From: an uncultured Bacteroidaceae bacterium
GTDB lineage: Bacteria; Bacteroidota; Bacteroidia; Bacteroidales; GCA-2748055
Assembly (NCBI GenBank): GCA_964563105.1
Contig: CAZLXM010000007.1
Coordinates: 253-64,252, forward strand
Reading direction: 5' to 3'
Length of the DNA stretch: 64,000 nt
Part shown: piece after piece, positions 1-32,994 of the stretch
Position numbering within the stretch: the stretch's first letter is position 1
Layout: every line of letters begins with the position of its first letter
Translations under genes and position numbers: made by a program
The notes under the pieces: generated by a model
The model's input: only the letters and a program-made list of their open reading frames with translations
Database searches by the model: none
What the model was told of the DNA's origin: nothing

Positions 1-1017
1 TGGAACAAAGGTCGTATCAATGGCAGGATTTTAACAGCTTTGAAAGCCCGGATTGCCCTGTTTGTTGCCAGTCAGGCATTTTCTCCCAGCACAGCAAAAT
101 GGGAAGCTGCTGCTGATGCAGCTGCTATTTTATTAAAAAATATAGGAGGTGTTTCAGGATTGGCTGCAGCAGGAAGGACATTCTATCTTACCAATAATAA
201 TGCTGATATAATCTGGAGAAGAGATGTACAGCAAATCAATTCCTGGGAAAGAGATAATTTCCCACCATCACTTTTTGGTAATGGAAGGACCAATCCAAGT
301 CAGAATCTGGTAGACGCATTTCCTATGATTAATGGTTATCCTGTCAATAATGCTGCCAGTGGATATAATCCTTCTGAACCATATAAAGACAGAGACCCCA
401 GATTAACACACTATATTGTATATAGTGGTAGTAAGATTGGTTCAGCAACCATAAATACAAATACCGAAGATCCTTCCAATGGCCTTAACAGTCTGATTAC
501 TTCCACCCGGACAGGTTATTATCTTAAAAAACTTTTAAGGGATAATGTGAACCTTGCACCGAATATTGACCTCAGACAGGAGCATTTCTATACTCTTCTG
601 AGATATACCGAATTATTCCTTAATTATGCCGAAGCTGCAAATGAAGCATGGGGACCTACCGGTGATCCCAGAGGAAACGGGTTTAATGCGAGCACTATTA
701 TTGCAGCAATAAGAGCGAGAGCCGGAATAACCCAGCCCGATGAATATCTTGGTACAGTTAACAGTCAGGCTGATATGCGTCAATTGATACGAAATGAAAG
801 ACGTATTGAATTGTGTTTTGAAGGATTCAGATTCTGGGACCTTCGTCGCTGGGACCTTCCCCTGGATGAGAAGGTTAAGGGTATGTCGATTACTAATAAT
901 GTATATACAGTAATTGATGTTGAAGAAAGGTCTTATAAGAGTTATATGAAATATGGCCCAATACCTTACTTTGAAATTTTGAAAAATAAGAGTCTGGTTC
1001 AAAATGAAGGCTGGTAG
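1..1017 (+). CDS. SusD/RagB-family nutrient-binding outer-membrane lipoprotein, C-terminal part (5' end lies outside the window)
   Basis: The frame is open from base 1, so the ORF-track start at 40 is only an in-frame TTG. The C-terminal signature ERRIELCFEGFRFWDLRRW is typical of SusD-like proteins. A second surface-lipoprotein gene follows it. Confidence 0.85.
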   Translation, partial: WNKGRINGRILTALKARIALFVASQAFSPSTAKWEAAADAAAILLKNIGGVSGLAAAGRTFYLTNNNADIIWRRDVQQINSWERDNFPPSLFGNGRTNPSQNLVDAFPMINGYPVNNAASGYNPSEPYKDRDPRLTHYIVYSGSKIGSATINTNTEDPSNGLNSLITSTRTGYYLKKLLRDNVNLAPNIDLRQEHFYTLLRYTELFLNYAEAANEAWGPTGDPRGNGFNASTIIAAIRARAGITQPDEYLGTVNSQADMRQLIRNERRIELCFEGFRFWDLRRWDLPLDEKVKGMSITNNVYTVIDVEERSYKSYMKYGPIPYFEILKNKSLVQNEGW

Positions 1018-8331: not shown

Positions 8332-9798
8332 TCAATTTGTTTGAATAGTTTCAGATTTTGCGGTTTTTCGGATTTCTCCGGGTGTTAATACTATTTTTCT
8401 TTTTGATAATTCAGGAATATTATAAGTTTTTAAATAGCTGTCATAAAATTCAGGATCTTTTTGTGGTAATACAAAAGCTTTACAACTTTCGCCATTTTCA
8501 TAAATATAAGATATATAAGGCCTGGCAGTTAATCCATCTATTCGTTTACTGCTAAAGGCCAGCCATTTGTTATTTGAAGACCATGAATGGTAACTTTCAG
8601 TATAATCGCTATTCAAAGACATTTTTGAAATTTCCATGTTCTCAAGGTTTAAGGAATAAAGATCAGCATCCTTATGCCAGATGGAAAAGCAACCATAATC
8701 ATGCAAAGTGAATACAAGGAAATTACCATTAGGGGAAATCCTTGGAAATGATACGCTTTTATTGAATTGGCCAAGAGCATCAAATATTAATTCAGGCAGG
8801 CCAAATGTTTGGCTTTCTTCATCAAAGGGAATTCTGTAAAGATTGTATTTAATATCCTGGTAGTCTAATTCTGATTCGGGGATATTTGCCCTGCAAAAGT
8901 ATAGATATTTTCCATCAGGCCCCCATTCAGGATATGTATCCATATACAGTTCCTTTTTGGGCAGATCAACGGGCGATATTTTATTTGAATCAATGTTATA
9001 AAGAATTAATGAGGAGGCAACATCAATAACTTCAACTTTTTTATTTTCCGATGCATGGAAAAGCTGACCAGTTTTATTACTTGAAAAAGCAATGAATTTT
9101 CCTGAAGGATGCCAACGGGGATAAACCGGATTGTATTTCATTTCCTCACTTTTCAGATTATATCTTTTTAATTTTCTGTCTTTATAGAAATATGTGTCCC
9201 CAAATGAGCCTCTTACATGAAAAAAGAAATCTGAATTATTTTTTGGATTAAATGTGTGGCAATTAATACAGTTATTATCAATAATTGAATTTTCTATTAT
9301 GGAATGAACTTTAAAATTTTCCAAACAACGCTGTTGAATATTTAAATCAACATAAGCTTCATAACCAGGATATAATAAACGGTAGCTCATATATGGGTCG
9401 ATCGGATCAGGGGCTATTTTCATTGTGAAAGGTTTAAAACTCTTCCATATTTCCTGATCATCTTTGCACAAAATTGTAATATGAAGCTCCTGGTTAATAT
9501 TATCATTAAGAATTTTTTTCCATTTTTTCATGGGGATAATGATCTTTCCATTTTTTGAAGATAAAACCATTAGAATATTACATTTGTTGGAAAATTGGGC
9601 AATATAACGGGAAGCTTCTTCTTTAATAAGAAAATTTAAAGGCGCGATATTTGGAGGTATGGTAATATCAATATAATCTGGTGTTATATGAGGGAACTCA
9701 GGAATGAGCCGGGCCTTTTCAACCGGGATCATTGAACAACCAAAAAAAAGCAGGAAAGCAAATGGAAATAAATATTTTCTAGTTAATATATTTTTCAA
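8332..9798 (-). CDS. Lipoprotein with a single CxxCH motif and a PD40/TolB-like beta-propeller-type C-terminal region
   Basis: Lipobox LLFFGC. CINCH is encoded at 9256-9270. Repeats of the WHPSGKFIAFSS / WGPDGKYLYF / ISPNGNFLVF / WSSNNKWLAFSS type resemble PD40 repeats. It sits 10 nt upstream of the membrane-protein gene. Confidence 0.55.
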   Translation of the reverse strand: MKNILTRKYLFPFAFLLFFGCSMIPVEKARLIPEFPHITPDYIDITIPPNIAPLNFLIKEEASRYIAQFSNKCNILMVLSSKNGKIIIPMKKWKKILNDNINQELHITILCKDDQEIWKSFKPFTMKIAPDPIDPYMSYRLLYPGYEAYVDLNIQQRCLENFKVHSIIENSIIDNNCINCHTFNPKNNSDFFFHVRGSFGDTYFYKDRKLKRYNLKSEEMKYNPVYPRWHPSGKFIAFSSNKTGQLFHASENKKVEVIDVASSLILYNIDSNKISPVDLPKKELYMDTYPEWGPDGKYLYFCRANIPESELDYQDIKYNLYRIPFDEESQTFGLPELIFDALGQFNKSVSFPRISPNGNFLVFTLHDYGCFSIWHKDADLYSLNLENMEISKMSLNSDYTESYHSWSSNNKWLAFSSKRIDGLTARPYISYIYENGESCKAFVLPQKDPEFYDSYLKTYNIPELSKRKIVLTPGEIRKTAKSETIQTN

Positions 9799-10430: not shown

Positions 10431-12182
10431 CTAATTAATTATATTCCCTTTTGAGTAAACAACTTTGCCCCCGACAATTGTTGCTTCTGATTCGATTTCC
10501 TTTATATTATCTACCGGGCAGGTAAGAATGTCGTCAGTAAGAATAACCATATCAGCTAGTTTTCCCCCTTCTATAGAGCCTTTTAGCAATTCTTCTGAAG
10601 ATGCAAATGCATTATTAATTGTATACATTTTCAGGGCTTCTTCCCTCGTGATTGCCTGCTGCGGTTCAATTACAGTTCCTCTTTCTGTTTTTCTTGTAAT
10701 TGCTGACCACATACCAAGAAAAGGGTTATAAGGATTAATAGAAGCATTTGCATCCCATTTTACCATGTGGTCTGAACCGCCATTAACCATAACCCCTGCA
10801 TCAAATAATGAACGATATGGATGGAAAGTGCGGATCTTTTCTTCTCCCAATATCTGAAGCATTGCGTCAGCATCTTTATAGAACCATGCAGGTTGTGAGT
10901 TTGCATATACTTCTAACTCTTTCATTTTCTTTATAGCGTCCTGTGTATAAAAATTACCATGAATTATTGAAAATCGTTTATTTTTTATTGATTTTGATTT
11001 ATTTATTTCTTCATAAACATCAAGCAGGAGATCAACACCGCCACCACCGGTTGAATGGGCCGTAAAACTCCAGTTAAGTTCATTTGCAGCTGAAACTATA
11101 GAAAGAAGCTGTTCCCGGGAATAATTCAAAACTCCTCTGTATGAAGGATCTTCAATTCCAAAAATAGCTTGTGCTTTATCACCCCAAGGTTCACGCATAT
11201 ATGCAGTTCCGGTTAAAATTCCACCATCCAGAATAATTTTTAATGGTCCTGCACGAAGCCATTCGTCACCATCACCTGTTTTATATCCGAGATTTTTTAA
11301 CCTGGCGCTCACATTTTCTTTCGTAATACTGTCTCCTCCCATCCTTAACATTATATTCTGGTAAATGCGGACTGTAAGCTTCTTATTACGGATCAAATCG
11401 TTATACATTTGAGTAGTTTCAGGATCATCTGAACCCTGGCACAAACTGGTAATTCCATATCGGTTATATCTTTCCAACATTGCTTCAAGGGCACTCAATT
11501 TTTCCTGATAAGTTAATACACGGGGGGTGGGACGTTTCAGTAAGCGAAATGCCGAAGCCCTGATAAAACCAGTTAACATTCCTGTATTTTCATCCCGTAA
11601 AAGTCCCGGATGATTTGTTGCTTTGGAAATTCCGGAAGCTTTCATTGCTGCCGAATTAATCATGCCTCCATAAGTCCCGTCAAGAAAAACCGGATGAAAT
11701 GGTGCAACTTCATCCATTTCAGTAAGGGTAGGTGATCTTAATTCTAAAAGCCGCGTTGCAAAAAACTTTGGAAAAATTATCCATTGATCTTTCTCTTTAA
11801 TTGTTGTTTGTTCTTTTATCCAATCAAGAAGTTCTGCTATAGAATGCACGTCAGGTATTTCTTCATCAATTTCACTTAAAAAAGCTAATTCAGGATGTAA
11901 ATGTGATTCATTAAGACCAGGAATTACGGTCTTTCCTTTGAGGTCAATAATTTTAGTGTTTTTCCCGGAAAACTTTTTAATCCTGGAAGAAGATCCTACA
12001 TCAATTATCATATCCTGAGTAATAGCCACTGCTTCAACGATCCTGAAATTATCATCTACAGTTACTATTTTACCGTTTAATAATATCATATCTGCAGGAT
12101 GGGTCACTTTACATGCTGAAAGGATAAGTATAAAAAAAGGAAGAAAAAAGATTGATTTCATTAAATTATTAACTGATTTCAT
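10431..12182 (-). CDS. Amidohydrolase-family (Amidohydro_3/YtcJ-like) metal-dependent hydrolase lipoprotein
   Basis: Lipobox LILSAC. HxH metal motif in GLNESHLHPE, later FTAHSTGGGG and GGSDH motifs, and a length of ~580 aa typical of the YtcJ-like group. Confidence 0.8.
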   Translation of the reverse strand: MKSVNNLMKSIFFLPFFILILSACKVTHPADMILLNGKIVTVDDNFRIVEAVAITQDMIIDVGSSSRIKKFSGKNTKIIDLKGKTVIPGLNESHLHPELAFLSEIDEEIPDVHSIAELLDWIKEQTTIKEKDQWIIFPKFFATRLLELRSPTLTEMDEVAPFHPVFLDGTYGGMINSAAMKASGISKATNHPGLLRDENTGMLTGFIRASAFRLLKRPTPRVLTYQEKLSALEAMLERYNRYGITSLCQGSDDPETTQMYNDLIRNKKLTVRIYQNIMLRMGGDSITKENVSARLKNLGYKTGDGDEWLRAGPLKIILDGGILTGTAYMREPWGDKAQAIFGIEDPSYRGVLNYSREQLLSIVSAANELNWSFTAHSTGGGGVDLLLDVYEEINKSKSIKNKRFSIIHGNFYTQDAIKKMKELEVYANSQPAWFYKDADAMLQILGEEKIRTFHPYRSLFDAGVMVNGGSDHMVKWDANASINPYNPFLGMWSAITRKTERGTVIEPQQAITREEALKMYTINNAFASSEELLKGSIEGGKLADMVILTDDILTCPVDNIKEIESEATIVGGKVVYSKGNIIN

Positions 12183-12357: not shown

Positions 12358-14499
12358 TTAGTCGACATAATTATTAAAATTTTCCCATTTTACATTCCAT
12401 TTTCCATTTTTTGGGAATTGACCTGAGATGCACATTTTTGCAATTGCAGTTAATAATCCCCCATTACCCGGCAAATAAACAGCAAGGTTAGGCCTTTGAT
12501 AATTGTGCCCGTTTAGGAGGTATTTATTTTTGTTGGTTTGCATTAGAAGAAAATCAATAGCTTTTTCTTCCTGGTGTAAAGATGCTGCTGACAATGCCAG
12601 CATTGGAAAATCCCATCCCCATGCTGATGGCCAGTTCCATTTAATATTTATTGAATCAAGTGAATTGCGAAGAATGTCTTTATTTATCTTATCTGTAGCA
12701 GGCAGGGCCCCTAAAATACCTGACACAACAGGATGGTCACTCAAATAACGAGTGTTTTCGTAAGAATCTTCAGTGTCTTCAGAACAGAGATAAACTCCGT
12801 TCTTTTCTGGTAATGCCGAAAGCCTGGAAACAACGTCTGCCCAGAGGGGATCAGGCTCAAGTTTTAATCTGCTTCGCCATTCCAGGGCTGTTTTAAGCGC
12901 CCAATACCAATATGCAAGTTCAAATACAGGATTTATAGTAGTTTCCGGTTTTAAACTTTCCTGTGCCGGAATTAAAACCGGGCCTAAAATATAACGATTA
13001 TCCACACTGTCAAAAAAAGCATAGGAAGCCATAAAATTTGCGGTTTCAAATACCAGTTCATTATACTTATTTAAAATTTCTTCCTTATTCTCTGCATTTT
13101 TATAAAGTAATTCGGAAAAGAAAATAAAATGTGGCTGTTGCCATATCAGGTAAGTTCCTACAGTACTGGGGCTTTCTCTGCCGTCAGGACCGGTCATTTT
13201 GGGCCATCTTACACCCGAATATCCCTGATGTTTCGCGGTTTCCATCGCTTTATCAAAGATGCTGTTATAATAGTCCATTTGCTTTTTAAGTATGTTCTCC
13301 CGTTTCCATAAAGCAAAATGAACTGCATGCCACCAATGCATTTCCAGATGGAACTTACCATACCAGCTATTATAAGTCAGGCCGGTTTCGGCAGGAGGAA
13401 GTGAACCACTGCATTGGATTTTGGTAAGATATTGTGATAATATAACTCTTCTTTCTAATTCAAATGCCCTTGGATCAGTACATTGTGAAAAGTCCGCTGC
13501 AGCTCCGCTTGTCCAGAATTCTTTCCAGGCCCTTCTGCTTTCACGCCTGCTTTCACGAAAAGTATATAAAGTACTATCAATTAGCGACTTACTAAAGCAA
13601 AAAGAACTCTCAAAAGATGAATCTTTCAATTCGGGGATAATATAATATAAATGTTTCGAAACTTCTGTTATACGGGCATTTCTATGGACAGCCATAAAAT
13701 AATATCTGTCTTTAGTTTGTTCACGTTCAATAATTGTATGATCAGTTGACCCGGAGATAATTTTAGTAGAATGTTTTTCGGGTTTATTAAAATCATAAGC
13801 TGAAGGTAAAGGTGTTCCTAATGGAAAATGAATTTTAATTTTCAATTGCCCTGTAGAAATTAGCCTGGAAGTTATTTTCACAGAAACTAAATCTGATTTT
13901 GGGTGACAAACAGTATGTACCTCAACTGCTGAGCCCTCCACATAAAATTTACTTTTTATCATGCCTGTCCACAAATCAAGCTTTTGAACGGGATTAGTGA
14001 TATCCTGAATATTTATCTCTGATCCGTCTTTCTTTACAATTTGTAGGCCTATCATCCCCAGGTGGATGCGATGAGGATTGGTGCGTAACCATTCGGAAGC
14101 CCGGACTTTTCTTGAATCTGCATGGTCTCTGAACTGATGAACATAATTTATGGTCCTGCCGTGAACTTCATAACTTTTGTAAACATCTGTCAATTGAAAA
14201 TTTTCAGTATTTTCATTTCTATGCCAGCCCCAGTTCGACATAGTACCTAAAGGGATACCTTTTTCATAAATTTCCGGAAAGGTCTGTAAACCGGTAATAT
14301 CAACCGTAAATGCAAAATCGCCATTACCTAATGACAAGGAACTAAGGCTGTCAATAATGGAGTGTTCAATATTATGTCTGGTAACCAGATCAAAACGGTT
14401 AATAGAAGAAGAGAAATTACATGCTGTCAGATAACAACATACAAATATTATTAAAGAGAAAAAAGTAGTTTTAAATCTATTATGATGATTTCCATTCAT
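12358..14499 (-). CDS. Large lipoprotein, putative (alpha/alpha)6-type glycoside hydrolase of unassigned family
   Basis: Lipobox YLTAC. N-terminal LGNGDFAFTVDITGLQTF resembles the N-domains of GH65/GH95-like enzymes. The aromatic-rich helical C-terminal half contains EMHWWHAVHF and YLIWQQPHFIFF. I could not assign a family. Confidence 0.4.
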   Translation of the reverse strand: MNGNHHNRFKTTFFSLIIFVCCYLTACNFSSSINRFDLVTRHNIEHSIIDSLSSLSLGNGDFAFTVDITGLQTFPEIYEKGIPLGTMSNWGWHRNENTENFQLTDVYKSYEVHGRTINYVHQFRDHADSRKVRASEWLRTNPHRIHLGMIGLQIVKKDGSEINIQDITNPVQKLDLWTGMIKSKFYVEGSAVEVHTVCHPKSDLVSVKITSRLISTGQLKIKIHFPLGTPLPSAYDFNKPEKHSTKIISGSTDHTIIEREQTKDRYYFMAVHRNARITEVSKHLYYIIPELKDSSFESSFCFSKSLIDSTLYTFRESRRESRRAWKEFWTSGAAADFSQCTDPRAFELERRVILSQYLTKIQCSGSLPPAETGLTYNSWYGKFHLEMHWWHAVHFALWKRENILKKQMDYYNSIFDKAMETAKHQGYSGVRWPKMTGPDGRESPSTVGTYLIWQQPHFIFFSELLYKNAENKEEILNKYNELVFETANFMASYAFFDSVDNRYILGPVLIPAQESLKPETTINPVFELAYWYWALKTALEWRSRLKLEPDPLWADVVSRLSALPEKNGVYLCSEDTEDSYENTRYLSDHPVVSGILGALPATDKINKDILRNSLDSINIKWNWPSAWGWDFPMLALSAASLHQEEKAIDFLLMQTNKNKYLLNGHNYQRPNLAVYLPGNGGLLTAIAKMCISGQFPKNGKWNVKWENFNNYVD

Positions 14500-14881
14500 T
14501 TTTAGGATACTTAGAGTTTAAATATATTCAGGTTTAATTTTTCGGTCTTATTTATAACTTCATTATTTAATTAATTACAAAAATAATGAATTTCACAAAG
14601 TTGTTATGAAATTATAAGTGTGTGAATATATTGGATTTTTGATAATTTTGTTTAAGGTCAAAATAAGTTCTATTAAATTGGATTAAAGAAACAGATTAAA
14701 AATTATATTTGATCCTGATCTTTATGAAAAGGCTGATCTGATCCTTAATATTTAATTATGTTACCATCAGGAGGTATTGATTTTTTTCCTGAAGCATGAA
14801 CTATTTAAAACATGTCTCATGCAGGAGCAAAAAAAATGAAAATATTCTGTGATTTATAACAATATCCTTTAACTTAAAAAA

Positions 14882-17167
14882 ATGAAGCGAAGAATCTCAT
14901 TTAAATATCTTATTTATACAATTTTTATTCATTTTATCACAATAATTCCAATAGCAGCACAGGCAGTTTCAAAAATTGAATGGATGACCATTGATAATGT
15001 AGCTATCCCCATTCCCCCGGCAGAACATCCCCGGCTTTTCTTAATGGCTTCGGATGTAAATGGGATAAGAGCCAGATTAGAGCATCCGGTATTGAAATCT
15101 GTAGTTGATTCCTTACGTATTCAATCAGGCTATTCTCTCCAGTTGAAATTGGAATGGGATGCCATTCAGTATTTAGTTTCAAAAGACAAAATACTCGGAC
15201 GATCTATTATTGATTCTGCACTGATTTTATTGCAGCAAACAGAGTTGCCGCAAATGGGTGATGCTGCCCGTGTTACCGGAAGGATGATGGTTACCGGGGC
15301 TATTATATACGATTGGCTTTATCCTTTAATTACCAACAAAGAAAAAGATGTATTTATTAGAGAATTAATCCGCCTTGCAAAAACTTTGGAATGTGGGTAT
15401 CCGCCTGCTAAACAGGGATCTGTGACCGGCCATTCATCGGAAAGTTTTATTATGCGTGATATGTTATCAGCCGGAATAGCAATATATGATGAATTTCCTG
15501 AAATGTATGAACTGGCTGCTACCCGGTTTTTCCGTGATCATGTCCCTGTTCGTAACTGGTTATATAATGGCCATGCGTATCATCAGGGTGATTCCTATGG
15601 CCCCTTAAGATTTAGCTGGGATACTTATCCATTAATGATCTTTAGCAGAATGGGTGTGAATAATGTATATAATCCGGAACAACAATATGTTCCTTATTTT
15701 TATCTTTATACTACACGTCCTGATGGTCAGCGAATGCGTGCAGGTGATACTTACTTTCATTCCGGTCATGGTGCAACACATGGAAGACCATGGGATCAAT
15801 ATGTTGGCACTTTATTTACGGCTGGTTATTATAAGGACGGGATTTTACTTGATCAATTCCTCCGCCAGGGAGGCAGTGATGGAAAAGCTCATGGCAGGAT
15901 CAATCAAAGAGAATATATTTTCCAGTTTTTATGGCGGGATTTGGAATTGCAGGCTCAATCAATTACCACATTACCTCTTTCAAGATATTTTGGGCCTCCA
16001 TTTGGATGGATGGTGGCCAGAACAGGCTGGGATGAAAATTCTGTTATATCTGAAATGAAGATCAATGTTTATAATTTCAGTAATCATCAGCATTTGGATG
16101 CAGGGGCCTTCCAGATTTATTACAGGGGGCCTCTTGCTACAGAATCCGGACTTTATGCCGGAACCAGCGGTGCTTATGGAAGCCCTCATTGTAAAAATTA
16201 TTACTGGCGTACCATTGCTCATAATTCTCTATTAGTTTATGATCCTGATGAAAAATTTAGCCCGCGGGGTGATTTTGGAAATGATGGAGGGCAGCGTTTG
16301 CCAAATAACCGATATGAACCACTAAACCTGGAATCAATGCTTGATCCGGATAAAGGATATAAAACCGGTGAAGTATTGGCACATAGTTATGGTCCCTGTC
16401 TCAAAGAACCGGATTATACCTATATTAAAGGCGATATAACAGATGCCTATAGTACAAAAGTTAAAGATGTTAAGCGTTCATTTGTCTTCCTGAATTTGAA
16501 AAATAATAAAGTTCCCGCTGCGCTTATTATTTTTGATAAAGTTGTGTCCTCATCTCCTTCATTTAAAAAATACTGGTTACTCCATAGCATTGATGAACCG
16601 GAAATAAAAGGAAATGAAGTAACAATTATGAGAAGAGAACAAAAAGAAAACGGAAAACTGGTAAACATCAGTCTGATCCCTGAAAAGAATAATTTTGAAC
16701 TTAAATCTGTGGGAGGCCCTGGCAAAGAATTTTGGGTATTCGGCACAAATTATGAAAATGAAATGCGTGATGCCTCCGGCTTACATACCTATGAAAGAGC
16801 TGCATGGCGTATTGAACTTTCACCAAAATTCCCTGTAAGTGACAATTATTTTCTGAATGTTATGCAGGTGATGGAAAATAATATTAAAGAAATGCATGTG
16901 AGTAAGATCGAGGGTGATAAAATAATTGGCGTCCTGATTTTTGACAGGATTGTGTTTTTTAGTAAAAATTTGGACGAAATAAATTCATCGTTTACTTTTT
17001 CTATAAAAAAAGATGGTATTTTTAAAATTCTTATTACTGATTTACCTGCCGGGAAATGGAAAGTAATAAAGGATGGAGAAGTTATTATACCTTCAATAAA
17101 TGTTCGTGATCAGGAAGGAACTTTATATTTTGAAGGCAAAAAAGGAAATTATTCAGTTATCAGGTAA
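14882..17167 (+). CDS. Heparinase II-like polysaccharide lyase (PL21-type), copy 1
   Basis: Signal peptide present. Long motif matches to Pedobacter heparinus heparinase II as I recall it: VTGAIIYDW, LECGYPP, MRDMLSAGIAIYDEFPEMY, YHQGDSYG, NHQHLDAGAFQIYY, RTIAHNSLLVYDP, NDGGQRLP, DYTYIKGDIT, VPAALIIFDKV and KKYWLLHSI. Confidence 0.85.
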   Translation: MKRRISFKYLIYTIFIHFITIIPIAAQAVSKIEWMTIDNVAIPIPPAEHPRLFLMASDVNGIRARLEHPVLKSVVDSLRIQSGYSLQLKLEWDAIQYLVSKDKILGRSIIDSALILLQQTELPQMGDAARVTGRMMVTGAIIYDWLYPLITNKEKDVFIRELIRLAKTLECGYPPAKQGSVTGHSSESFIMRDMLSAGIAIYDEFPEMYELAATRFFRDHVPVRNWLYNGHAYHQGDSYGPLRFSWDTYPLMIFSRMGVNNVYNPEQQYVPYFYLYTTRPDGQRMRAGDTYFHSGHGATHGRPWDQYVGTLFTAGYYKDGILLDQFLRQGGSDGKAHGRINQREYIFQFLWRDLELQAQSITTLPLSRYFGPPFGWMVARTGWDENSVISEMKINVYNFSNHQHLDAGAFQIYYRGPLATESGLYAGTSGAYGSPHCKNYYWRTIAHNSLLVYDPDEKFSPRGDFGNDGGQRLPNNRYEPLNLESMLDPDKGYKTGEVLAHSYGPCLKEPDYTYIKGDITDAYSTKVKDVKRSFVFLNLKNNKVPAALIIFDKVVSSSPSFKKYWLLHSIDEPEIKGNEVTIMRREQKENGKLVNISLIPEKNNFELKSVGGPGKEFWVFGTNYENEMRDASGLHTYERAAWRIELSPKFPVSDNYFLNVMQVMENNIKEMHVSKIEGDKIIGVLIFDRIVFFSKNLDEINSSFTFSIKKDGIFKILITDLPAGKWKVIKDGEVIIPSINVRDQEGTLYFEGKKGNYSVIR

Positions 17168-17308
17168 GGCCTTTTAAATTTTTTCTGCCTAAAGTCAATG
17201 TAGCATTGTGAAATATTTTGTGAATATATTTTCGTTAAATTGAAACACTTATTTTTGCATGGTATCAAAACACTCTAATATACAATAGCATAGTTAAAAT
17301 ATCTAAAG

Positions 17309-19588
17309 ATGGAACCGGAAAATTTTAAATTGACAATAAATAAGCTTTTAATAATTATATTTATGCTGTTATCAGGTTGTAAGCATGATGACAATTTACT
17401 TACAGCTCAGCCTGAAACAGAGGTCCTATGGAAAAATATTGATACAATTGCAATTCCTCTTCCTCCTTCCATACATCCCCGCTTATATATAAACAGTACT
17501 GATGTTGCTGAAATGGGAACAAGATTAAAAAATCCTGTTTTACAACATATTGTTGGAAAACTAATTTCACAATCAGATAAAACACCGCAAAATCAGGTTG
17601 AATGGAATGCTATTTTTTATCTTGTAAATAAAGATAAGTCATTTGGAAGAAATATTATTGATTCTACTGCAGCTTTATTAAAAAGGACAGTGTTACCAGA
17701 TATCCTTGATGCAGCCAGGGTAACGGGGAGGATGATGGTAACAGGGGCAATAGTTTATGATTGGCTTTATCCCTTATTGAGCACTGCAGATAAAGAGTTA
17801 TTTATCAGTGAATTAGTTCGTTTAGCCAAAACTCTTGAATGTGGTTATCCGCCAACTAAACAGGGATCTGTAACAGGACATTCATCTGAAAGTTTTGTTA
17901 TGCGTGATATGTTATCAGCCGGCATAGCCATTTATGATGAATTCCCCGAAATGTATGAACTTGCTGCAACACGGTTTTTTCGTGAACATTTACCTGTCAG
18001 GAACTGGTTATATAACGGCCATGCCTATCATCAGGGTGATTCATACGGTCCTCACCGGTTTAGCTGGGATACTTATCCTTTAATGATTTTCAGTAAAATG
18101 GGATTAGATAATATATATAATCCCGATCAGCAGTTTGTACCTTATTTTTATATCTATACTACCAGGCCGGATGGCCAAAGGATGCGGGCAGGTGATACTT
18201 TTGCCCATAGTGCAGCTCCGGGAAGGCCTTGGGGTCAATATGCAGGTACATTATTCGCTGCGGGTTATTATAATGACGGAATTTTACTTGAGCAATTCCT
18301 TCGTCAGGGTAGAAGTGATGGTAACGAAAATATATTCCAGTTTTTATGGTGGAATACAGAACTGCAACCTAAGCCAATTAATGACCTGCCACTTTCCAGA
18401 TATTTCGGGCCACCTTTCGGATGGATGGTTGCCCGCACAGGGTGGGATAAAAATTCGGTAATTGCTGAAATGAAAATAAATGAATATAATTTTACCAACC
18501 ACCAACATTTGGATGCAGGGTCATTTCAGATATATTACAAAGGCCCCCTTGCCACTGAATCTGGTTTATATTCCGGAACTGACGGAGAATATGGAAGTTC
18601 TCACTGTAAAAACTACTATTGGCGTACAATTGCGCATAATAGTCTTTTAATTTATGACCCGCTTGAAAAATTCGGTTCAGGAAATGGTTATGGCAATGAC
18701 GGAGGACAACGCTTGCCAAATAATCGCTCTGAACCACGGAATCTTAATGTTATGTTAAATCCTGCAAATGGTTATAAAACAGGTGAAATTATTGCTCATG
18801 GATTTGGAGATTCCAGGGATAAACCTGATTATACCTACTTAAAGGGTGATATAACAAAAGCATACAGTTCAAAAGTAATTGAGCTGAAACGTTCTTTTGT
18901 CTTCCTAAACCTTAAAAATGACAATGTCCCTGCTGCTCTTGTAATATATGATAAAATAATTTCTTCGCAATCTTCATATAAAAAATATTGGCTGCTTCAT
19001 AGTATTGAGGAGCCTGTTTTACAGCAAAATAAAGTAATAATTAGTCATTCTGATATTGATGCAAATGGACGCCTTGTAAATATCTGCCTGATTCCGGAGA
19101 AAAATAATATGGAAATTAATGCAGTTGGAGGGCCGGGCAAAGAATTTTGGGTATTTGGAGTGAATTATAAAAATGATCCAAAATATATAAATCCAAATAC
19201 ATATGAAAATGCTGCCTGGCGAATTGAAATTTCACCTCTAGAAGCTTCTCAGGAAAACTATTTCCTAAATATAATGCAGGTAATGGAGAATCATGTTAAA
19301 GAACTGGATGTAAAAAAAGTAGAAGGTAATGATATTACCGGGGCAGTTATTGCAGATCGTATTGTTTTTTTTAGTAAAACCTCCGGTGAAATAAATTCTT
19401 CAGTTAATTTTAGTATTGAAGATGAAGGGAGTTATATGGTTCTCATTACAGATCTTGCACCCGGAAAATGGCAGATTTGGCGGGATGATAAGTTAATTGT
19501 TCAGAACGCTGAAGTAAAGGGCGAAGAAAAAGCACTATATTTTGAGGGATTAAAAGGGAAGTATGTATTAACAAAATTGCTTAAATAA
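17309..19588 (+). CDS. Heparinase II-like polysaccharide lyase (PL21-type), copy 2 (tandem paralogue, lipoprotein)
   Basis: Lipobox MLLSGC. It carries the same motif set as copy 1, with long identical runs such as AKTLECGYPP.KQGSVTGHSSESF.MRDMLSAGIAIYDEFPEMYELAATRFFR. Confidence 0.85.
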   Translation: MEPENFKLTINKLLIIIFMLLSGCKHDDNLLTAQPETEVLWKNIDTIAIPLPPSIHPRLYINSTDVAEMGTRLKNPVLQHIVGKLISQSDKTPQNQVEWNAIFYLVNKDKSFGRNIIDSTAALLKRTVLPDILDAARVTGRMMVTGAIVYDWLYPLLSTADKELFISELVRLAKTLECGYPPTKQGSVTGHSSESFVMRDMLSAGIAIYDEFPEMYELAATRFFREHLPVRNWLYNGHAYHQGDSYGPHRFSWDTYPLMIFSKMGLDNIYNPDQQFVPYFYIYTTRPDGQRMRAGDTFAHSAAPGRPWGQYAGTLFAAGYYNDGILLEQFLRQGRSDGNENIFQFLWWNTELQPKPINDLPLSRYFGPPFGWMVARTGWDKNSVIAEMKINEYNFTNHQHLDAGSFQIYYKGPLATESGLYSGTDGEYGSSHCKNYYWRTIAHNSLLIYDPLEKFGSGNGYGNDGGQRLPNNRSEPRNLNVMLNPANGYKTGEIIAHGFGDSRDKPDYTYLKGDITKAYSSKVIELKRSFVFLNLKNDNVPAALVIYDKIISSQSSYKKYWLLHSIEEPVLQQNKVIISHSDIDANGRLVNICLIPEKNNMEINAVGGPGKEFWVFGVNYKNDPKYINPNTYENAAWRIEISPLEASQENYFLNIMQVMENHVKELDVKKVEGNDITGAVIADRIVFFSKTSGEINSSVNFSIEDEGSYMVLITDLAPGKWQIWRDDKLIVQNAEVKGEEKALYFEGLKGKYVLTKLLK

Positions 19589-19651
19589 TTAATTTAAATC
19601 TGATCCTATTGATATAAAAGATAAGTATTCATTTTTAAAAATGTTTAAGAT

Positions 19652-20683
19652 ATGACATATCAATCGAGAAGGAAATTTATGAAAAATGCATCATTTGGGG
19701 CGACTGCATTTGGACTATCTGGTTTTACACCTGCAGCCGGTAATTATGATAAAAAGGAAATTAAACGGATGCCCCGGGAAGTATGGATCGCAACTATTAC
19801 CCAGCATAATATCGGTGGTAATAATATCCGGGAATCCATCCAATCTGCATTAAGGCAGATGGAAAATGCCCTACCATTTAAACCTGATATCTATTGCCTT
19901 CCTGAAGCATTTCATGTTGCAGCAGTGAAGGGAGGGAGGCCGTCTCCTGAAATTTCTGCTGAAAATGGATCCGGAAATATTATAAACCCTTTTCAGGCAT
20001 TCGCAAAAAAGAATAACTGTTATGTGATATGTTCTGTTTATACTGTTGAGAGTGGGAAATATTATAATGCAGCTGTTATTATTGACCGCCAGGGTAAATA
20101 TATGGGTGAATATAGGAAAGTGAGGTTAACAGTGGAAGAGTTAAAATATTTAACTCCCGGGCCCCGGGATATTCCTGTGTTTCAAACTGATTTTGGAATA
20201 ATAGGTGTACAAATATGTTTTGATATTGAATGGCCCGAGGGATGGTCCCGGCTGGGTGATAAAGGAGCTGAAATGGTATTTTGGCCCTCTGCCTTTGCAG
20301 GTGGCAAGATGGTGAACACATATGCCTGGCAAAATCACTACTGTGTAATTTCAAGTACAAGGAAAAATACCAGTAAAATTTGTGATATTACCGGAGAAGA
20401 AATTGCAGTAAGCGGAAACTATAGTCCCTGGGGAGTATGTGCTCCGGTAAATCTGGAAAAGGCATTTCTTCATAGCTGGCCGTATAATAAACATTTTCCT
20501 GAAATAGAGCGCAAATACGGCAGGAAAGTTAGGATATATACTCTGCATGAAGAGGAATTTTCAATAATAGAAAGTTTATCGATGGATATAAAGGTCGCAG
20601 ATATTATGAAAGAATTTGGTTTAAAAACGCATCGTGAACATAAAAAAATTGCTGAATTAGAACAAAATAAATTTTATTCCTGA
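19652..20683 (+). CDS. Carbon-nitrogen hydrolase family protein with a Tat-type signal (paralogue of 2228-3277)
   Basis: SRRKFMKNASFGATAFG twin-arginine motif. Triad contexts are CLPEAFH, YRKVRL and GVQICFDIEW, plus FWPSAFAGG. It starts 63 nt after heparinase II-like copy 2. Confidence 0.8.
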   Translation: MTYQSRRKFMKNASFGATAFGLSGFTPAAGNYDKKEIKRMPREVWIATITQHNIGGNNIRESIQSALRQMENALPFKPDIYCLPEAFHVAAVKGGRPSPEISAENGSGNIINPFQAFAKKNNCYVICSVYTVESGKYYNAAVIIDRQGKYMGEYRKVRLTVEELKYLTPGPRDIPVFQTDFGIIGVQICFDIEWPEGWSRLGDKGAEMVFWPSAFAGGKMVNTYAWQNHYCVISSTRKNTSKICDITGEEIAVSGNYSPWGVCAPVNLEKAFLHSWPYNKHFPEIERKYGRKVRIYTLHEEEFSIIESLSMDIKVADIMKEFGLKTHREHKKIAELEQNKFYS

Positions 20684-20737
20684 CTTTTTTTATCCGGTTT
20701 TTATTATTGATTCATTTATTATTACAAAGGGACTAAT

Positions 20738-23236
20738 ATGTTTTCAAAAATAAACTTTATGAGAAATTTACTTTTTATTCCTTCCAAAAAAGATCATTTT
20801 TTCTTTAATAAAAATAAACATTCAGGCAGAAATGTATTCTCGACTTATTTAATGATTTCCTTATTTTTTCTTATAATCACTTCTTCATGTAACTCTCCTG
20901 CAGAAGATAAACAAATACTGCCTGAAGCTGAACCTAAGCCTTATACTGTTCGTTATGCACCTGCTGACGGAAGTGTTTCACAGATTGACCCACCGGCTTT
21001 TATCTGGTTACCTGTTGATAAAAAAGAAGAATATATACTCCAATATAGCACTAAAGCTGATTTTAAACCTGAGCAGACTAAAACAATAAACTGTAGCCGG
21101 ACTATTTTTGTCCCCCATGAAACTATGGGTTCCGGAAAATGGTACTGGCGTTATGGAATTAAAGATGACCAGACAGGTAAATTGATTTTTAGCAAAGTCC
21201 GTAAATTTACTATTGTTAAGAATGCCGTGGAAGTGCCTTTTCCGGATGTGAAAAAAGTAATTGATGATCTTAAAGGTATCCGCCCGCGTAATTTAGTCAG
21301 AAATGAAGATATTCATCATTTCAGGGAGCTTGGGGCAGGCCCTTTAAAAGGATATCTTGATAATCTGAAAAGAAATGGAAATAAATTTTTAGGCGAGCCA
21401 TTACATCCTGAACCGGATTTTTTATCTGAAGACAGGGAGCAGAAAATAGTTGATTTTGTTAAGATCATGAGGTCCACCAGAGTATTTAACAGTGGAATAT
21501 CAGAGTGTGCCACTCTTTATTTATTAACAGGTGAAGAGAAATATGGGATGGAAGCGAGGCGCCGGATGTTACATCTTGCTTCATGGGACCCTGAGGGAAG
21601 CACAAGCCTTTTTCATAATGATGAACCCGGTCATGAAATAATTAGTGTTATTGCAAGGGCTTATGACTGGATATATCCGCTTCTTGACCAGAATGATAAA
21701 GATAAAATATGTAAAATGCTTGCTGTAAGGATTCCGCAGCTTTATAAAGTATTAATTAATAAACCTTTCGAAATACATCCTTACGAGTCACATGCAATGG
21801 GTTATTTTATAGGGGATTTACTGGAGGCTTGTATTTGCATGGCAGATGAAATTCCGGTTGAGGAAATGTTGGAATATGTTTTACTTCAACTCTGGTCTCC
21901 CTACTTTCCTCCTTATGGCGGAGATGATGGTGGTTGGTGCGAAGGGCCTTCATACTGGCAATGGAGTACAGCAGTTTTTTTACGTATTTTTAGTCTTGTT
22001 GAACAAAATTGCGGTGTGGATCTGACCAATAAACCATGGCTGAAAAATACTGCATTTTTTAAACTATACTGTAATCCTCCATATTCAAAAATGTCACCCT
22101 TTGGTGATGGACAGTCTGGGGTTCCAGGTTTATCAGGAATAATGTTTAAACTTGGGGTAACATACAATAATCCTTATGCTTTGTGGTATGATAAACAGCT
22201 AAATGCTAAACCACAAGGAGTTGAACGTTTTAAATATTTCATCGAAACAGAAGATACAGGCAAATCACCCGAGGATCTCCCACAGGCACATTGCTTTCAT
22301 AATATTGGCCTGGCTTGTATGCACAGCGATTTGGCAAATGGTGAAAATAATGTCCATTTTATGCTTCGAAGCAGTCCATTTGGGGCAATAAGCCATGCAT
22401 ATGCTGATCAAAATGCTTTTGTCCTCTTTGGATATGGCGAACCGCTCGCTATTGCTTCAGGTTACTATCCTTATTATGACAGTCCCCATCACAGAAGTTG
22501 GACATGGCATACAAAGGCATCAAATAGTATTTTGGTAAATGGTGAAGGACAGAAAATACGTAACTGGGATTCACGCGGGAAAATAACTGATTTTAAAACA
22601 ACGGATTATGCCCATTATGCTATTGGAGACGCCACAGAGGCTTATTTTGGAAGTGTTAAACGTTTTTACAGGCATGCACTTTTTCTTAGACCGACTATTC
22701 CTGAAGATGAACCTGTAATTATACTTTATGATGATGTTGCAAGTCAGGATCCTTCTATCTATGACTGGTTGCTTCATTCTATTGAAAAAATGCAGGCAGA
22801 TGAACAAAATAAATCGGTAACCATAAGGAGGGGAGCTGCCGGACTGTTTGTTCAATTCCTTACACCGGAACAATTAAAATTTTCCCAAACAGATGAGTTT
22901 ACTGTCCCCCCTGAATCTGATAATATGCCTAATCAATGGCATTTAAATGCGCAAACAACTGTTGCTGATACAGTTGCAAAATTTATAACAGTATTAATGC
23001 CTTTCCGGCAAGGTCTGGAACAAAATCTTCCGCGAATAAGGTTTATTGATAAAGCCGGCTGGGTTATCATTGAGTTAACAAGCTCACATACAACACAGGT
23101 GGTAGCATTCCGGACAGGGGCTAAACCGGGGACGTCCATTAAAATTGGAGATTTTAAAACCAAAGCTGATGTTGCGGCTACTGCATATGATTTGCAGGGT
23201 AACGTAAGGGCCTCAATACAAATTGAAAATAAATAA
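20738..23236 (+). CDS. DUF4962 / heparinase II/III-family polysaccharide-lyase-like protein
   Basis: The N-terminal PPAFIWLPV...YILQYSTKADF...KWYWRYG pattern resembles DUF4962. A helical toroid-like middle is followed by a C-terminal ISHAYADQNAF...ASNSILVNGEGQ region like the heparinase II/III C-domain. The start is uncertain: M39 at 20852 gives the lipobox-like MISLFFLIITSSC. Confidence 0.7.
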   Translation: MFSKINFMRNLLFIPSKKDHFFFNKNKHSGRNVFSTYLMISLFFLIITSSCNSPAEDKQILPEAEPKPYTVRYAPADGSVSQIDPPAFIWLPVDKKEEYILQYSTKADFKPEQTKTINCSRTIFVPHETMGSGKWYWRYGIKDDQTGKLIFSKVRKFTIVKNAVEVPFPDVKKVIDDLKGIRPRNLVRNEDIHHFRELGAGPLKGYLDNLKRNGNKFLGEPLHPEPDFLSEDREQKIVDFVKIMRSTRVFNSGISECATLYLLTGEEKYGMEARRRMLHLASWDPEGSTSLFHNDEPGHEIISVIARAYDWIYPLLDQNDKDKICKMLAVRIPQLYKVLINKPFEIHPYESHAMGYFIGDLLEACICMADEIPVEEMLEYVLLQLWSPYFPPYGGDDGGWCEGPSYWQWSTAVFLRIFSLVEQNCGVDLTNKPWLKNTAFFKLYCNPPYSKMSPFGDGQSGVPGLSGIMFKLGVTYNNPYALWYDKQLNAKPQGVERFKYFIETEDTGKSPEDLPQAHCFHNIGLACMHSDLANGENNVHFMLRSSPFGAISHAYADQNAFVLFGYGEPLAIASGYYPYYDSPHHRSWTWHTKASNSILVNGEGQKIRNWDSRGKITDFKTTDYAHYAIGDATEAYFGSVKRFYRHALFLRPTIPEDEPVIILYDDVASQDPSIYDWLLHSIEKMQADEQNKSVTIRRGAAGLFVQFLTPEQLKFSQTDEFTVPPESDNMPNQWHLNAQTTVADTVAKFITVLMPFRQGLEQNLPRIRFIDKAGWVIIELTSSHTTQVVAFRTGAKPGTSIKIGDFKTKADVAATAYDLQGNVRASIQIENK

Positions 23237-25112: not shown

Positions 25113-26268
25113 TTAGTTTGAACAGCCTCTGATTTTGCAATATTCCGTATTTTGCCGGGTGTTAATACAATTTTCCGGGATATTAAAAGTTTTTAAAAAT
25201 GTATCATAAAATGTCGGGCCCTTCTGAGGTAACACGAAAGGTTTACAACTATCCCCGTTTTTTTGTATATAAGATATATAGGGTCTGGCTGTTAATCCAT
25301 CTTCGCGTTTGTTGCTAAAAACCAGCCATTTGCTATTTGATGACCATGAATGATAACTTTCATATAAATCACTGTTCAGGTCTAACCTGGAAACAACGCA
25401 TGTTTCCAGATTAATAGAATAAAGATCTGCATTTTTGTGCCATATTGAAAAACAGCCGTAATCTTGTAAAGTAAAAATCAAATATTTACCATTGGGAGAT
25501 ATCCTGGGAAAAGAAACACTTTTGTCAAGAGCAAGGGCATCAAATATTAATTCAATTGTTCCAAATGTGCGATTTTCTTTATTGAACGAAATCCTGTACA
25601 GGTTATACTTTATATTCTTATATTCTAATTTCGAATCAGGCTTAATTGCCCTGCAAAAATAAGTGCCACCAAAAGAGCCTCTTGCATGAAAAAAGAAATC
25701 AGATTGATTGTCAGGATTGAATGTATGGCAATTAATGCAGTTATTTTCTATTATACTGTTTTCTATAAGAGAATGAACCTTGAAATTTTCCAGGCAACGT
25801 TGTTTTATACTTAAATTGGTATAGGCCTCAAAACCAGGATATAATAAACGATAAGAAAGAAAAGGGCCTATTGGGTCAACAGATATATTCATAATTAAAA
25901 GGTTTGAATTTTTTCCACTGACTCTGTTTATCTTTACAAAAAACAGTTATCTGAATCTCCTGGTTAATATTGTCCTTAAGGATATTTTTCCATTTACTCA
26001 ATGGGATCATGACCTTCCCGGTTGTTGAAAATATTTCCATTAAGATTTTCAAATTACAGGAAAATCGGACAAAAAATGCTAAACCATCTTCTTTGACCTG
26101 AAAATTTAAAGGAGCAATATTTGGAGGTATTGTAATGTTTGTATAATCAGGCTTTATTTCAGGAAATTGTAAAATATTCTCCGGATTAATTGTTGCTATG
26201 TCTGTGCAGCCTAAAATAAATAGCAAAATATTGCATTTGAAAAAATATTTTAAAAAAGTTTTTTTCAA
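25113..26268 (-). pseudogene. Degraded paralogue of the CxxCH/PD40-like lipoprotein gene 8332-9798
   Basis: It is split into two ORFs (25876-26268 and 25113-25892) by a 1-nt insertion near 25890 (aaacctttt aat t atg here versus aaacctttc aca atg in copy A). About 97 codons are missing between TYF and CRA (junction ~25655). A further frameshift near the 3' end makes an alternative frame read KIVLTPGKIRNIAKSEAVQTK, matching copy A. Confidence 0.75.
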
Positions 26269-31712: not shown

Positions 31713-32822
31713 TCAGTTACTGCCTTTATACATATTAAAAATTTTAATTGCATTTGTGTTATATATCTTTTCAAGAACTTCATCAGGCAGATATAGACCA
31801 TAAATCATCCAGCGGCCCTGAAGCTTATGAGCTGGTGTGGGGTCAAAATATTCGTCATCAGTTTCCAGGAATCGATAATAAACCCTGTATGACTCTGCGT
31901 TACAGGGAGTGTCTGTTCCAAATAATATCCTGTCCTGATATTTGATCATAAATTTTCGTGCTGTATATGGCTGCCGTCCTAGTTCACTGATCCTGGCATT
32001 AATATCTACATAAAAATTTGGATATTTTTCCAGCCACATTGAAACCCGTCCCAGTTCTTCAGGAAGATTACCTACATGCGCACCAATAAAAATAGTATTG
32101 GGATGACGGGCAATTACCCGGTTTCTTTGATCAAGGATCTCATTTTTTGCCGGAAATTCATCACCATAAAAAGACCAGTTGGGATGTTCTGCCAGTTCAT
32201 CATATCTTTCATTGTATTTATCAACCGGGCCGGCATGAAAGGCTTTAGGATCAGTGACGTGAATCATTACCGGAATACCCAGTTCACCACATTTCGCCCA
32301 TATAGGGTCAATTCTTGGATCATCAACAGGTACCACTTTCCCACTTTTATCCTTTAATGTCAATCCAAGATTTTTGAATATTTTTAATCCCCTGCATCCC
32401 ATTTTTACAGCTTCTTCAAGTTTTTGTGCCTCTTTGGTCCCAAAATTGTGCTCATCAATTTTACTGAAATCAGGAGAAAAGAAAACAATAAATCTTTCAT
32501 TGGATATACTGTTGGATACTTCAAGATGTTTTTTATAAAAATTATCACGTGATCGACCATCAAGGCTGACACATATCCATACTCCGGCTTTGTTCATTTC
32601 CTCCAGATATTCCTGAGTTTTATCCAGGTTGCCCAGATGGTTATGGATATCAATAACCGGAAATTTTGGCTGCATAACTTTTGTTTCCTTTACTACCAGC
32701 TGACTAATCGGTTGCCAGTCAAGTAAGCGCAGATCACCCGGCTGAGCTGCTAAAAAATATGGAAAGATCATATAAAAGATATATGCCGAAATTAAGCTGT
32801 TAAAAGATTTTTTATTTTTCAT
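31713..32822 (-). CDS. Amidohydrolase-family (Amidohydro_2-like TIM-barrel) protein, secreted
   Basis: Signal-like N-terminus. HxH metal motif in VIDIHNHLG, then VMIHV, IGAHVG and FGTDTP motifs. Confidence 0.75.
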   Translation of the reverse strand: MKNKKSFNSLISAYIFYMIFPYFLAAQPGDLRLLDWQPISQLVVKETKVMQPKFPVIDIHNHLGNLDKTQEYLEEMNKAGVWICVSLDGRSRDNFYKKHLEVSNSISNERFIVFFSPDFSKIDEHNFGTKEAQKLEEAVKMGCRGLKIFKNLGLTLKDKSGKVVPVDDPRIDPIWAKCGELGIPVMIHVTDPKAFHAGPVDKYNERYDELAEHPNWSFYGDEFPAKNEILDQRNRVIARHPNTIFIGAHVGNLPEELGRVSMWLEKYPNFYVDINARISELGRQPYTARKFMIKYQDRILFGTDTPCNAESYRVYYRFLETDDEYFDPTPAHKLQGRWMIYGLYLPDEVLEKIYNTNAIKIFNMYKGSN

Positions 32823-32994
32823 ATCACATAAAATTTTGATTTTAATAAAGCTGAAAAAAACCTTTATTATTTAAAGATGGTTCTTATAAGTTTTAAAAAG
32901 TAATCCGCTGAACAAATCATGATTTAATTTTTTCAGCAAAATTTGAGATTATCTAATTTTTAGTATCTTTTTACTTGTTTAATAATTTTAGAAT

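Follow-up and report, generated by a model that had tools for sequence, protein, structure and literature searches.

A tandem pair of heparinase II homologues with a CN hydrolase and a PL15 lyase in a Bacteroidia glycan locus

A run of polysaccharide lyase genes raises the question of which polymer it attacks, and of whether the genes that are missing around it help to answer that question. The case considered here lies in a window of 64,000 nucleotides from an uncultured Bacteroidaceae bacterium (GenBank assembly GCA_964563105.1, contig CAZLXM010000007.1); the window is contig C7 (64,288 bp) minus 288 bases, and the assembly, which belongs to Bacteroidia, comprises 182 contigs and 3.9 Mb. Four consecutive genes encode two homologues of heparinase II (polysaccharide lyase family 21, PL21), a CN hydrolase, and a further lyase, and a first-pass annotation of this DNA had argued, from the lack of sulfatase and glycoside hydrolase family 88 (GH88) genes, that the substrate is an unsulfated or differently decorated uronic-acid polymer. 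The list of open reading frames (ORFs) agrees with that annotation on four genes of the same strand separated by gaps of 141, 63, and 54 nt:

14882..17167, + strand: HepII_1, PL21 heparinase II homologue, 761 aa, signal peptidase I (SPI)-type signal (Pfam, structure matches, HepB model, residue alignment)
17309..19588, + strand: HepII_2, PL21 heparinase II homologue, 759 aa, predicted lipoprotein (LSGC, Cys24) (Pfam, structure matches, alignment)
19652..20683, + strand: CNH_B, nitrilase-superfamily (CN hydrolase) amidase, 343 aa, twin-arginine signal (SRRKF) (Pfam, AlphaFold2 model)
20738..23236, + strand: PL15-family lyase (protein 4), 832 aa, predicted lipoprotein (ITSSC) (structure-sequence matches)

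The explanation that we favour, with a confidence only modestly above even, is a laterally acquired, duplicated heparinase II-type system directed at a backbone of the heparosan/heparan sulfate (HS) type, the sulfation state being left open. With the same measured confidence, the cluster would supply the depolymerising enzymes at the core of a locus that uses a glycan whose backbone has hexosamine alpha-1,4-linked to uronic acid. The PL21 enzymes characterised so far act on heparin/HS only (PMC11848413, PMC10656541).

Family, active sites and signals of the lyases

Both HepII_1 and HepII_2 contain the Pfam domains HepII_C, Hepar_II_III_C, and DUF4962 and match the Pedobacter heparinase II structure 3E80 over the full length (E 2e-232 and 7e-226, respectively), and HepII_1, the copy that was scored, reaches 965 bits on the NCBIfam HepB equivalog NF045571, for which the cut-off is 600. 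This full-length similarity, for HepII_1 above a curated threshold, together with the retention of the catalytic residues, bears out the PL21-type identity proposed for both proteins. They are 50.3% (HepII_1) and 48.6% (HepII_2) identical to HepII of P. heparinus and 67% identical to each other, and the tandem duplication is visible as 72–79% nucleotide identity.

On the numbering of the 772-aa P. heparinus precursor (taken from locus L054), Arg148, His202, Glu205, Tyr257, Arg261, Asn405, His406, His408, Tyr429, Tyr436, and His451 are kept in both copies, and Asn437 is replaced by Gly in both. The zinc ligands of HepII are said to have been assigned by Shaya and colleagues in 2006 as His408, Asp425, and His451; His408 and His451 are kept, and Asp425 is conservatively replaced by Glu in both window copies as well as in their closest relative (L005, described below). 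The catalytic residues of the known enzyme are His202, Tyr257, and His406, with Glu205 as neutraliser (PMC12088678, PMC10656541). The four motifs singled out by the first-pass annotation (GHSSESF, YHQGDSYG, NHQHLDAG, and TIAHNS) are invariant in both copies and hold His202/Glu205, Tyr257, His406/His408, and His451, respectively. Alignment to the characterised heparinase II thus confirms the catalytic residues in both proteins and finds the zinc site altered solely by the Asp-to-Glu change, so that the predicted catalytic centre of both copies is intact. Both copies are moreover under purifying selection: dN/dS between HepII_1 and HepII_2 is 0.13 (with dS at 1.86, near saturation), and both have therefore been maintained by selection.

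The signal types of the two copies differ. The N-terminus of HepII_1 reads as SPI-like, with IAAQ before the predicted cut and A after it, and the protein is by this motif predicted to be periplasmic or soluble, while HepII_2 carries the lipobox LSGC followed by K-H-D-D. An acidic tail after the lipobox cysteine is the surface-export signal of Bacteroidota lipoproteins, and the K-H-D-D stretch resembles such a tail. The split into one SPI-secreted protein and one lipoprotein therefore fits by motif, and makes a division of labour between surface and periplasm a reasonable proposal. The other PL21 sequences inspected, including tandem pairs in L057 and L069, have SPI-like N-termini. Elsewhere in the genome, a third, divergent PL21-like protein of 940 aa (contig C68:6430-9252, locus L091) is 33% identical to HepII and keeps all catalytic and zinc residues and HepII_C; it adjoins unknown proteins, a metallophosphatase, and a DUF4114 protein.

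Protein 4, previously described as a DUF4962 lyase-like protein, can be named more exactly as a PL15 lyase from its domains (DUF4962, E 6e-50, and Hepar_II_III_C) and from its similarity to the oligo-alginate lyase Atu3025 (3A0O, E 1.6e-82) and the exo-heparinase (6LJA, E 2.4e-48), the former being the nearer of the two by sequence. The PL15 catalytic residues listed in the literature include His311, Tyr365, His531, and the neutraliser Arg314 (PMC12088678). In common with Atu3025 (PL15; 3A0O/3AFL) and BIexoHep (PL15_2; 6LJA; PMC7904915), protein 4 has DUF4962 plus Hepar_II_III_C and the catalytic His/Tyr/His, the counterparts of His311, Tyr365, and His531 (Atu3025 numbering) lying in the motifs SHA, SYW, and SHAYAD. 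It differs from both in being a predicted lipoprotein, in having Gly355 where the neutraliser Arg314 of Atu3025, the mark of subfamily 1, would align, and in having Ser-His for the Asn-His pair of the exo-heparinase, and on account of these two replacements it is assigned to neither characterised PL15 subfamily.

Origin of the PL21 pair

A scan for PL21 with one genome per species gave 79 PL21 loci. The maximum-likelihood tree unites the two window copies with a sequence from a Mariniphaga metagenome-assembled genome (L005, 68% identical) in a trio supported at 100%, and the sister group of this trio (99%) consists of 26 sequences that belong to Planctomycetota, Verrucomicrobiota, and Lentisphaerota (PVC). 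The classical Bacteroidota clade, whose 36 rows include P. heparinus and other Prolixibacteraceae, stands apart from the trio. Judged by this tree, the window pair belongs to an uncharacterised branch of PL21 found otherwise in Planctomycetota and Verrucomicrobiota, here called PVC-type, and the characterised PL21 enzymes that could be placed belong to the classical clade. One characterised enzyme, PCHepII, is 68% identical to the Pedobacter enzyme (PMC10656541).

Eighteen positions separate the PVC-type from the classical branch. Among them, W206→A/S lies beside Glu205 and N437→G beside Tyr436, K446→W falls five residues before His451, R296 is replaced by T, and the R96/Y98 segment is deleted; R96, R296, and K446, all conserved basic residues, are thereby missing from the PVC-type branch. 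A literature search on the roles of residues 96, 206, 296, 437, and 446 returned nothing relevant. Compared with HepB of P. heparinus (PL21; 2FUQ, 2FUT, 3E7J, 3E80), the window copies share the full length and the three-domain layout with HepII_C; they differ from it in being 49–50% identical, in falling on a separate branch, in including one lipoprotein, and in carrying D425→E, N437→G, W206→S, K446→W, R296→T, and the deletion of the R96/Y98 segment.

The distribution of the genes and a syntenic metagenome contig (L084) point to the way in which the pair reached its present position. Of 90 further genomes in the family, not one has a PL21 match at E <= 1e-20, and a close orthologue of the PL15 gene is likewise lacking in these 90 genomes, the best match being 36–38% identical. 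The syntenic contig carries counterparts of Amidohydro_3 (78% identity), the GH65-like gene (73%), PL15 (73%), DUF6057 (63%), PD40 (67%), the CN hydrolase (82%), and AP_endonuc_2 (83%); the PL21 pair is absent from it, and its CN hydrolase gene follows PD40 and does not lie between lyase genes. Most simply, a PL21 pair was acquired and inserted before the resident PL15 gene, and a rearrangement placed the amidase gene among the lyase genes. The branching order within the trio is not resolved, and the PL21 duplication may therefore predate its arrival in the lineage, the data being unable to place it before or after. Insertion scars, insertion sequence elements, and flanking repeats were looked for around the PL21 pair and none was found; the sole repeats are those of the tandem duplication itself.

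From these elements, which show the lateral transfer and the insertion, the following course of degradation can be proposed. A PL21 gene of the Planctomycetota/Verrucomicrobiota-type branch entered a Bacteroidia lineage, where the pair now stands directly upstream of the resident PL15 gene, with the Tat-exported amidase gene of the locus placed between pair and PL15. HepII_2, as a lipoprotein with an acidic export-type tail, would cleave the polymer endolytically by beta-elimination at the cell surface; the oligosaccharides would enter through SusC/D-type transporters; and HepII_1, with its SPI signal, and the PL15 lipoprotein would finish the depolymerisation in the periplasm, where the CN hydrolase may remove an amide-linked group (carboxamide or N-acyl) from the glycan or its fragments.

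Sulfatases, GH88 and the nature of the substrate

The lack of sulfatase and GH88 genes was confirmed: searches of the whole genome with PF00884 and PF07470 give no match on C7, and hidden Markov models (HMMs) built from the sulfatases and GH88 proteins of the genome itself give none in the window. The region upstream, for which the first-pass annotation had proposed an inspection, was probably also recovered. Contig C110 (L090 1-10666) ends in susD residues ~10-126 and the window starts at about residue 150 of susD; since C110 thus ends in the missing N-terminal part of the window susD, it is the likely upstream neighbour, and it carries a PocR/AraC regulator, SusC, SusD, and a second SusC, with no sulfatase or GH88. 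No k-mer overlap joins the head of C7 to an upstream contig, because this head lies in a paralogous susD.

Two observations concern this end of the contig. The genes of C110 form a tandem double SusC/D arrangement (SusC of 1108 aa, SusD of 594 aa, and a second SusC of 948 aa). The pair of SusD and a BT_3987-like_N/DUF5627 surface protein (window 1-2068) has at least 10 paralogous copies in the genome, with SusD 50–58% identical across the pairs (contigs C3, C15, C21, C22, C55, C59, C100, and C144), and this expansion probably caused the assembly break at the window start.

The inference drawn from the absence, namely an unsulfated or differently decorated substrate, is weak and not supported. 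When the same HMM test was applied as a control to P. heparinus and eight other Pedobacter genomes, no sulfatase or GH88 was found within 10 kb of hepB, and the absence is therefore shared by the prototype heparin/HS enzyme. Other contigs of the genome hold 31 sulfatase, 25 SGSH_C, and 5 GH88 matches along with three other Hepar_II_III lyases, and the sulfatases include 54–57% identical counterparts of those that flank a PVC-type PL21 gene (L031) or a relative of the amidase (L001). The closest PL21 relative, L005, has an SGSH-type sulfatase ~6 kb away, as well as GH109, Amidohydro_2, and Gfo/Idh/MocA genes, and in L007, L031, L032, and L034 a sulfatase lies beside the PL21 gene or within ~2 kb of it. 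The assembly is fragmented, with 182 contigs and the window cut inside susD, so that the absence does not cover linkage beyond the contig. In summary, the sulfation state of the substrate is not readable from the local gene content.

Comparison with known systems gives a mixed picture. The heparin/HS polysaccharide utilization locus (PUL) of Bacteroides thetaiotaomicron reportedly corresponds to BT4652-BT4675, in the account of Cartmell and colleagues from 2017. Like this PUL and the classical PL21 loci (L029, L033, L045, L061), the window combines several lyases with different predicted locations, a PL15 enzyme that accompanies endolytic lyases, and SusC/D-type genes in the wider region. Unlike them, it has no GH88, sulfatase, PL12, or PL13 on its contig, its PL15 is not of the exo-heparinase (PL15_2) type, its susC/D genes are not adjacent, and a Tat-exported CN hydrolase lies inside the lyase cluster.

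Several points weigh against the heparosan/HS-type system favoured here. The contig carries no GH88, GH89-type gene, or sulfatase, and thereby lacks both the GH88 and the S1 sulfatases that a canonical Bacteroidota heparin/HS locus has within it. The PL15 enzyme is closer to an alginate exo-lyase than to the exo-heparinase, and is devoid of the Atu3025 neutraliser Arg314. The specificity of the PL21 copies may differ from that of the classical enzymes, given the branch differences W206→A/S, N437→G, and K446→W and the loss of R96/R296, and the enzymes of the PVC-type branch are, to our knowledge, all uncharacterised. We also know of no need for a nitrilase-superfamily amidase in heparan-type catabolism. 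Finally, co-transcription is a presumption, a candidate promoter box lies inside the 141-nt gap, and the SusC/D genes (susD at 1-1017) are 14 kb off, behind four opposite-strand genes.

These points give some room to a tentative and clearly less probable alternative, in which the target is not heparin/HS but an unsulfated or amide-decorated uronic-acid glycan, such as a capsule, an exopolysaccharide, heparosan, or a glycosaminoglycan (GAG)-like polymer with uronic carboxamides or amino-acid amides, and in which the amidases of the locus (two CN hydrolases, two M14 peptidase-like proteins, and Amidohydro_3) stand in for the sulfatases of classical GAG loci. The lack of sulfatase and GH88 on the contig and on the probable upstream contig C110 would agree with it, although the same argument fails its control, with hepB of P. 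heparinus equally isolated. PVC-type loci do have a sulfatase or GH88 near PL21 less often than classical ones (8/34 vs 20/33, Fisher p = 0.003), but this comparison is confounded by phylum-level genome organisation (PULs versus none), and the sulfatases beside PL21 in L005, L007, L031, L032, and L034, as well as the 54–57% identical counterparts elsewhere in the genome, speak against an unsulfated target. The loss of R96, R296, and K446 and the changes beside E205 and Y436 may also be taken in its favour. The remaining evidence concerns the amidases, which are considered below.

The CN hydrolase, the transcription unit and the surrounding genes

CNH_B matches the CN_hydrolase Pfam family at E 1e-27, and its tetrad E85, K156, E163, and C189 is invariant in 23 family members. 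The AlphaFold2 model (pLDDT 87) matches amidases and carbamoylases in Foldseek at E 1e-20 and ~20% identity. Among them are N-carbamoylputrescine amidohydrolase 5H8I, Nit2 2W1V, and the Pyrococcus amidase 6YPA, whose fold it shares with a Foldseek probability of 1.0 and a TM-score up to 0.77 (target-normalised), the Glu-Lys-Glu-Cys tetrad being intact. Unlike these enzymes, it has a twin-arginine signal and a conserved C-terminal extension of ~90 residues, shares only ~20% identity with them, and lies inside glycan-degradation loci. As modelled, CNH_B is of the amidase or carbamoylase type and not a true nitrilase, and its signal would make it Tat-exported and thus periplasmic.

The closest relatives of CNH_B (57–82% identity) adjoin PL8 (L113), PL2 (L111), or a Pel9A-like beta-helix gene (L088), or lie within three genes of a Hepar_II_III lyase with GH95 and GH123 (L086) or near PL15 (L084). 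Six of the 10 closest contexts contain a lyase gene or one resembling it (PL8, PL2, PL9-like beta-helix, Hepar_II_III, or PL15). Other relatives stand beside SGSH-type sulfatases (L001, L111), with ceramidase and PIG-L genes (L003), or with DUF1611 and MR_MLE genes (L004, L112). A general partnership of CN hydrolases and lyases was considered and rejected, since it fails in 80 more distant metagenome loci, where there is no dominant partner: 93 immediate neighbours match 100 different Pfam families, and lyase-like genes occur in 5 of the 80 loci, and in 3 of the 30 of at least 10 kb, counts that are lower bounds given the small lyase reference set. The CNH_B family itself is rare, with 2 of 401 sampled Bacteroidia genomes containing it, and a literature search found no account of nitrilase-superfamily enzymes encoded in lyase loci or of amidases that act on uronamides.

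For the amide-decorated glycan raised above, these contexts cut both ways. In its favour are the lyase or lyase-like genes in the closest CN hydrolase contexts; the five amidase-type genes within a 35-kb neighbourhood (two CN hydrolases, two M14-like, and one Amidohydro_3), of which M14_B resembles deglutamylating bacterial cytosolic carboxypeptidases; the CN-hydrolase-like genes 5–8 kb from PVC-type PL21 in L009, L015, and L017; and a PL12-like lyase on contig C30 that sits beside an AstE/AspA-type hydrolase. The lack of a dominant partner in the distant amidase loci, with so few lyase-like genes among them, counts against it. The fit of the amidase-rich pattern to a glycan with amide-linked decorations is circumstantial. 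We think it improbable, at a level well below that of the broader alternative, that PVC-type PL21 enzymes together with Tat CN hydrolases, M14, and amidohydrolase genes degrade a GAG-like microbial polysaccharide with amidated uronic acids (carboxamide or amino acids), and a similarly long shot that periplasmic de-amidation is the counterpart of the desulfation in classical GAG loci.

Some further associations of amidases and amidohydrolases were observed. In L004 (Dyadobacter) and L112 (metagenome), CN hydrolases 63–64% identical to CNH_B come directly after SusC/SusD and before DUF1611 plus MR_MLE, a pair known for D-glutamate or N-acetyl-D-glutamate conversion; this role of the pair hints that the CNH_B family deamidates peptide-type or carboxamide substrates. 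The lyase of contig C30 (L114 696-12809) has Hepar_II_III_N and Hepar_II_III_C and 699 aa; the AstE/AspA-type protein that it adjoins is an N-acyl-amino-acid hydrolase, and its other neighbours are an esterase, a GH29 fucosidase, an 851-aa beta-helix protein, and SusD, which makes this a second lyase-plus-amidohydrolase pairing within the same genome. A PVC-type PL21 gene is accompanied by Amidohydro_2 and a GH109-like Tat oxidoreductase in L005 (2827-15283) and by Amidohydro_2 in L009; the pair of Amidohydro_2 and GH109-like Tat oxidoreductase is also present at window 31713-34416, 9–11 kb downstream of the lyase cluster.

The remaining features of the surroundings to which the argument refers are the following:

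1..1017, + strand: susD 3' part, truncated by the contig end; 5' part probably at the end of contig C110
2228..3277, + strand: CNH_A, second Tat-exported CN hydrolase, in an operon of SusD, surface glycan-binding protein, CN hydrolase, M14, and beta-helix genes; 38% identical to CNH_B
10431..12182, - strand: Amidohydro_3 metal-dependent hydrolase, lipoprotein, syntenic with L084 (context)
12358..14499, - strand: GH65-like lipoprotein, 713 aa, divergent from the cluster (context)
14500..14881, no strand: divergent intergenic region of 382 bp between the GH65-like gene (-) and HepII_1 (+) (ORF layout)
17250..17257, + strand: TATTTTTG, candidate internal promoter box, 52 nt upstream of HepII_2 (fits the -7 consensus)

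The cluster had been called an operon. Its shared strand and short gaps stand; co-transcription remains a presumption, because scans for sigma-70 promoters and terminators gave counts no higher than chance. The promoter of the cluster probably lies within the divergent intergenic region. The -7 promoter consensus of Bacteroidota is TAnnTTTG, and TATTTTTG in the 141-nt gap fits it, so that HepII_2 may have a promoter of its own. A 16-nt word, TAATGAATTTCACAAA (14584-14599), is common to the GH65-like/lyase intergenic regions of the window and of L084 (L084 3369-3635); it occurs once in the window, its distances to the flanking genes differ from those in L084, and a single match arose by chance in 34 of 100 shuffles.

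A reading in which the four genes do not form one unit is unlikely. The PL21 pair would then be an autonomous cassette, acquired and inserted by chance into a resident PL15/amidase/AP_endonuc_2 locus with another substrate, and the shared strand and short gaps would have no functional meaning. A resident locus working without PL21 in L084, the candidate box in the 141-nt gap, the ubiquity of the GH65-like neighbour in unrelated contexts, and the very diverse neighbours of the amidase family would allow it, but the amidase gene has moved relative to L084, and its present place, 63 nt after HepII_2 and 54 nt before PL15, suggests that a rearrangement created a single transcription unit; PL21 beside PL15 recurs in the classical heparin-type loci L036, L045, and L061, and both PL21 copies are under purifying selection.

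Among the neighbouring genes, the GH65-like lipoprotein was considered as a substitute for GH88 and rejected, as its family, which is very common, turns up in unrelated contexts and has no specific tie to lyases. The family has at least ~8000 proteins, the best 120 of which are 62–73% identical, and the protein matches no Pfam model above threshold and, by sequence, no PDB entry; some members are named 'protein-glucosylgalactosylhydroxylysine glucosidase' by JGI, and in one genome the gene adjoins GH16. Next to the second DUF6057 copy, the PD40-like gene is broken into two ORFs, one of 259 aa and one of 130 aa (25113-26268, - strand), and PD40-like copy A (8332-9798) has 488 aa; the L084 counterpart is intact, with 481 aa. 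The final 31 bases of C7 are found again at the head of contig C37 (positions 6-36), and the window therefore probably continues into C37.

Taken together, the cluster is a plausible variant of the known glycosaminoglycan-degrading clusters, and it illustrates that the substrate of a lyase cannot be judged reliably from a lack of sulfatase and GH88 genes in the vicinity of its gene. The useful leads that it offers are the unstudied PL21 branch and the periplasmic amidase, and the inference from missing neighbours is not among them. If the substrate did carry amidated uronic acids, it would be a new substrate class for PL21, and the amidase would represent the first role of the nitrilase superfamily in glycan breakdown. 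The occurrence of a periplasmic CN hydrolase within clusters of lyase genes offers a lead to an accessory step, as yet undescribed, by which acidic glycans may be broken down. For the PL21 family, the window is a clear case of a second branch, so far unstudied, that has entered a glycan locus of a Bacteroidia bacterium, and the substrate range of this branch would bear on how heparinase II annotations in environmental genomes are to be read.

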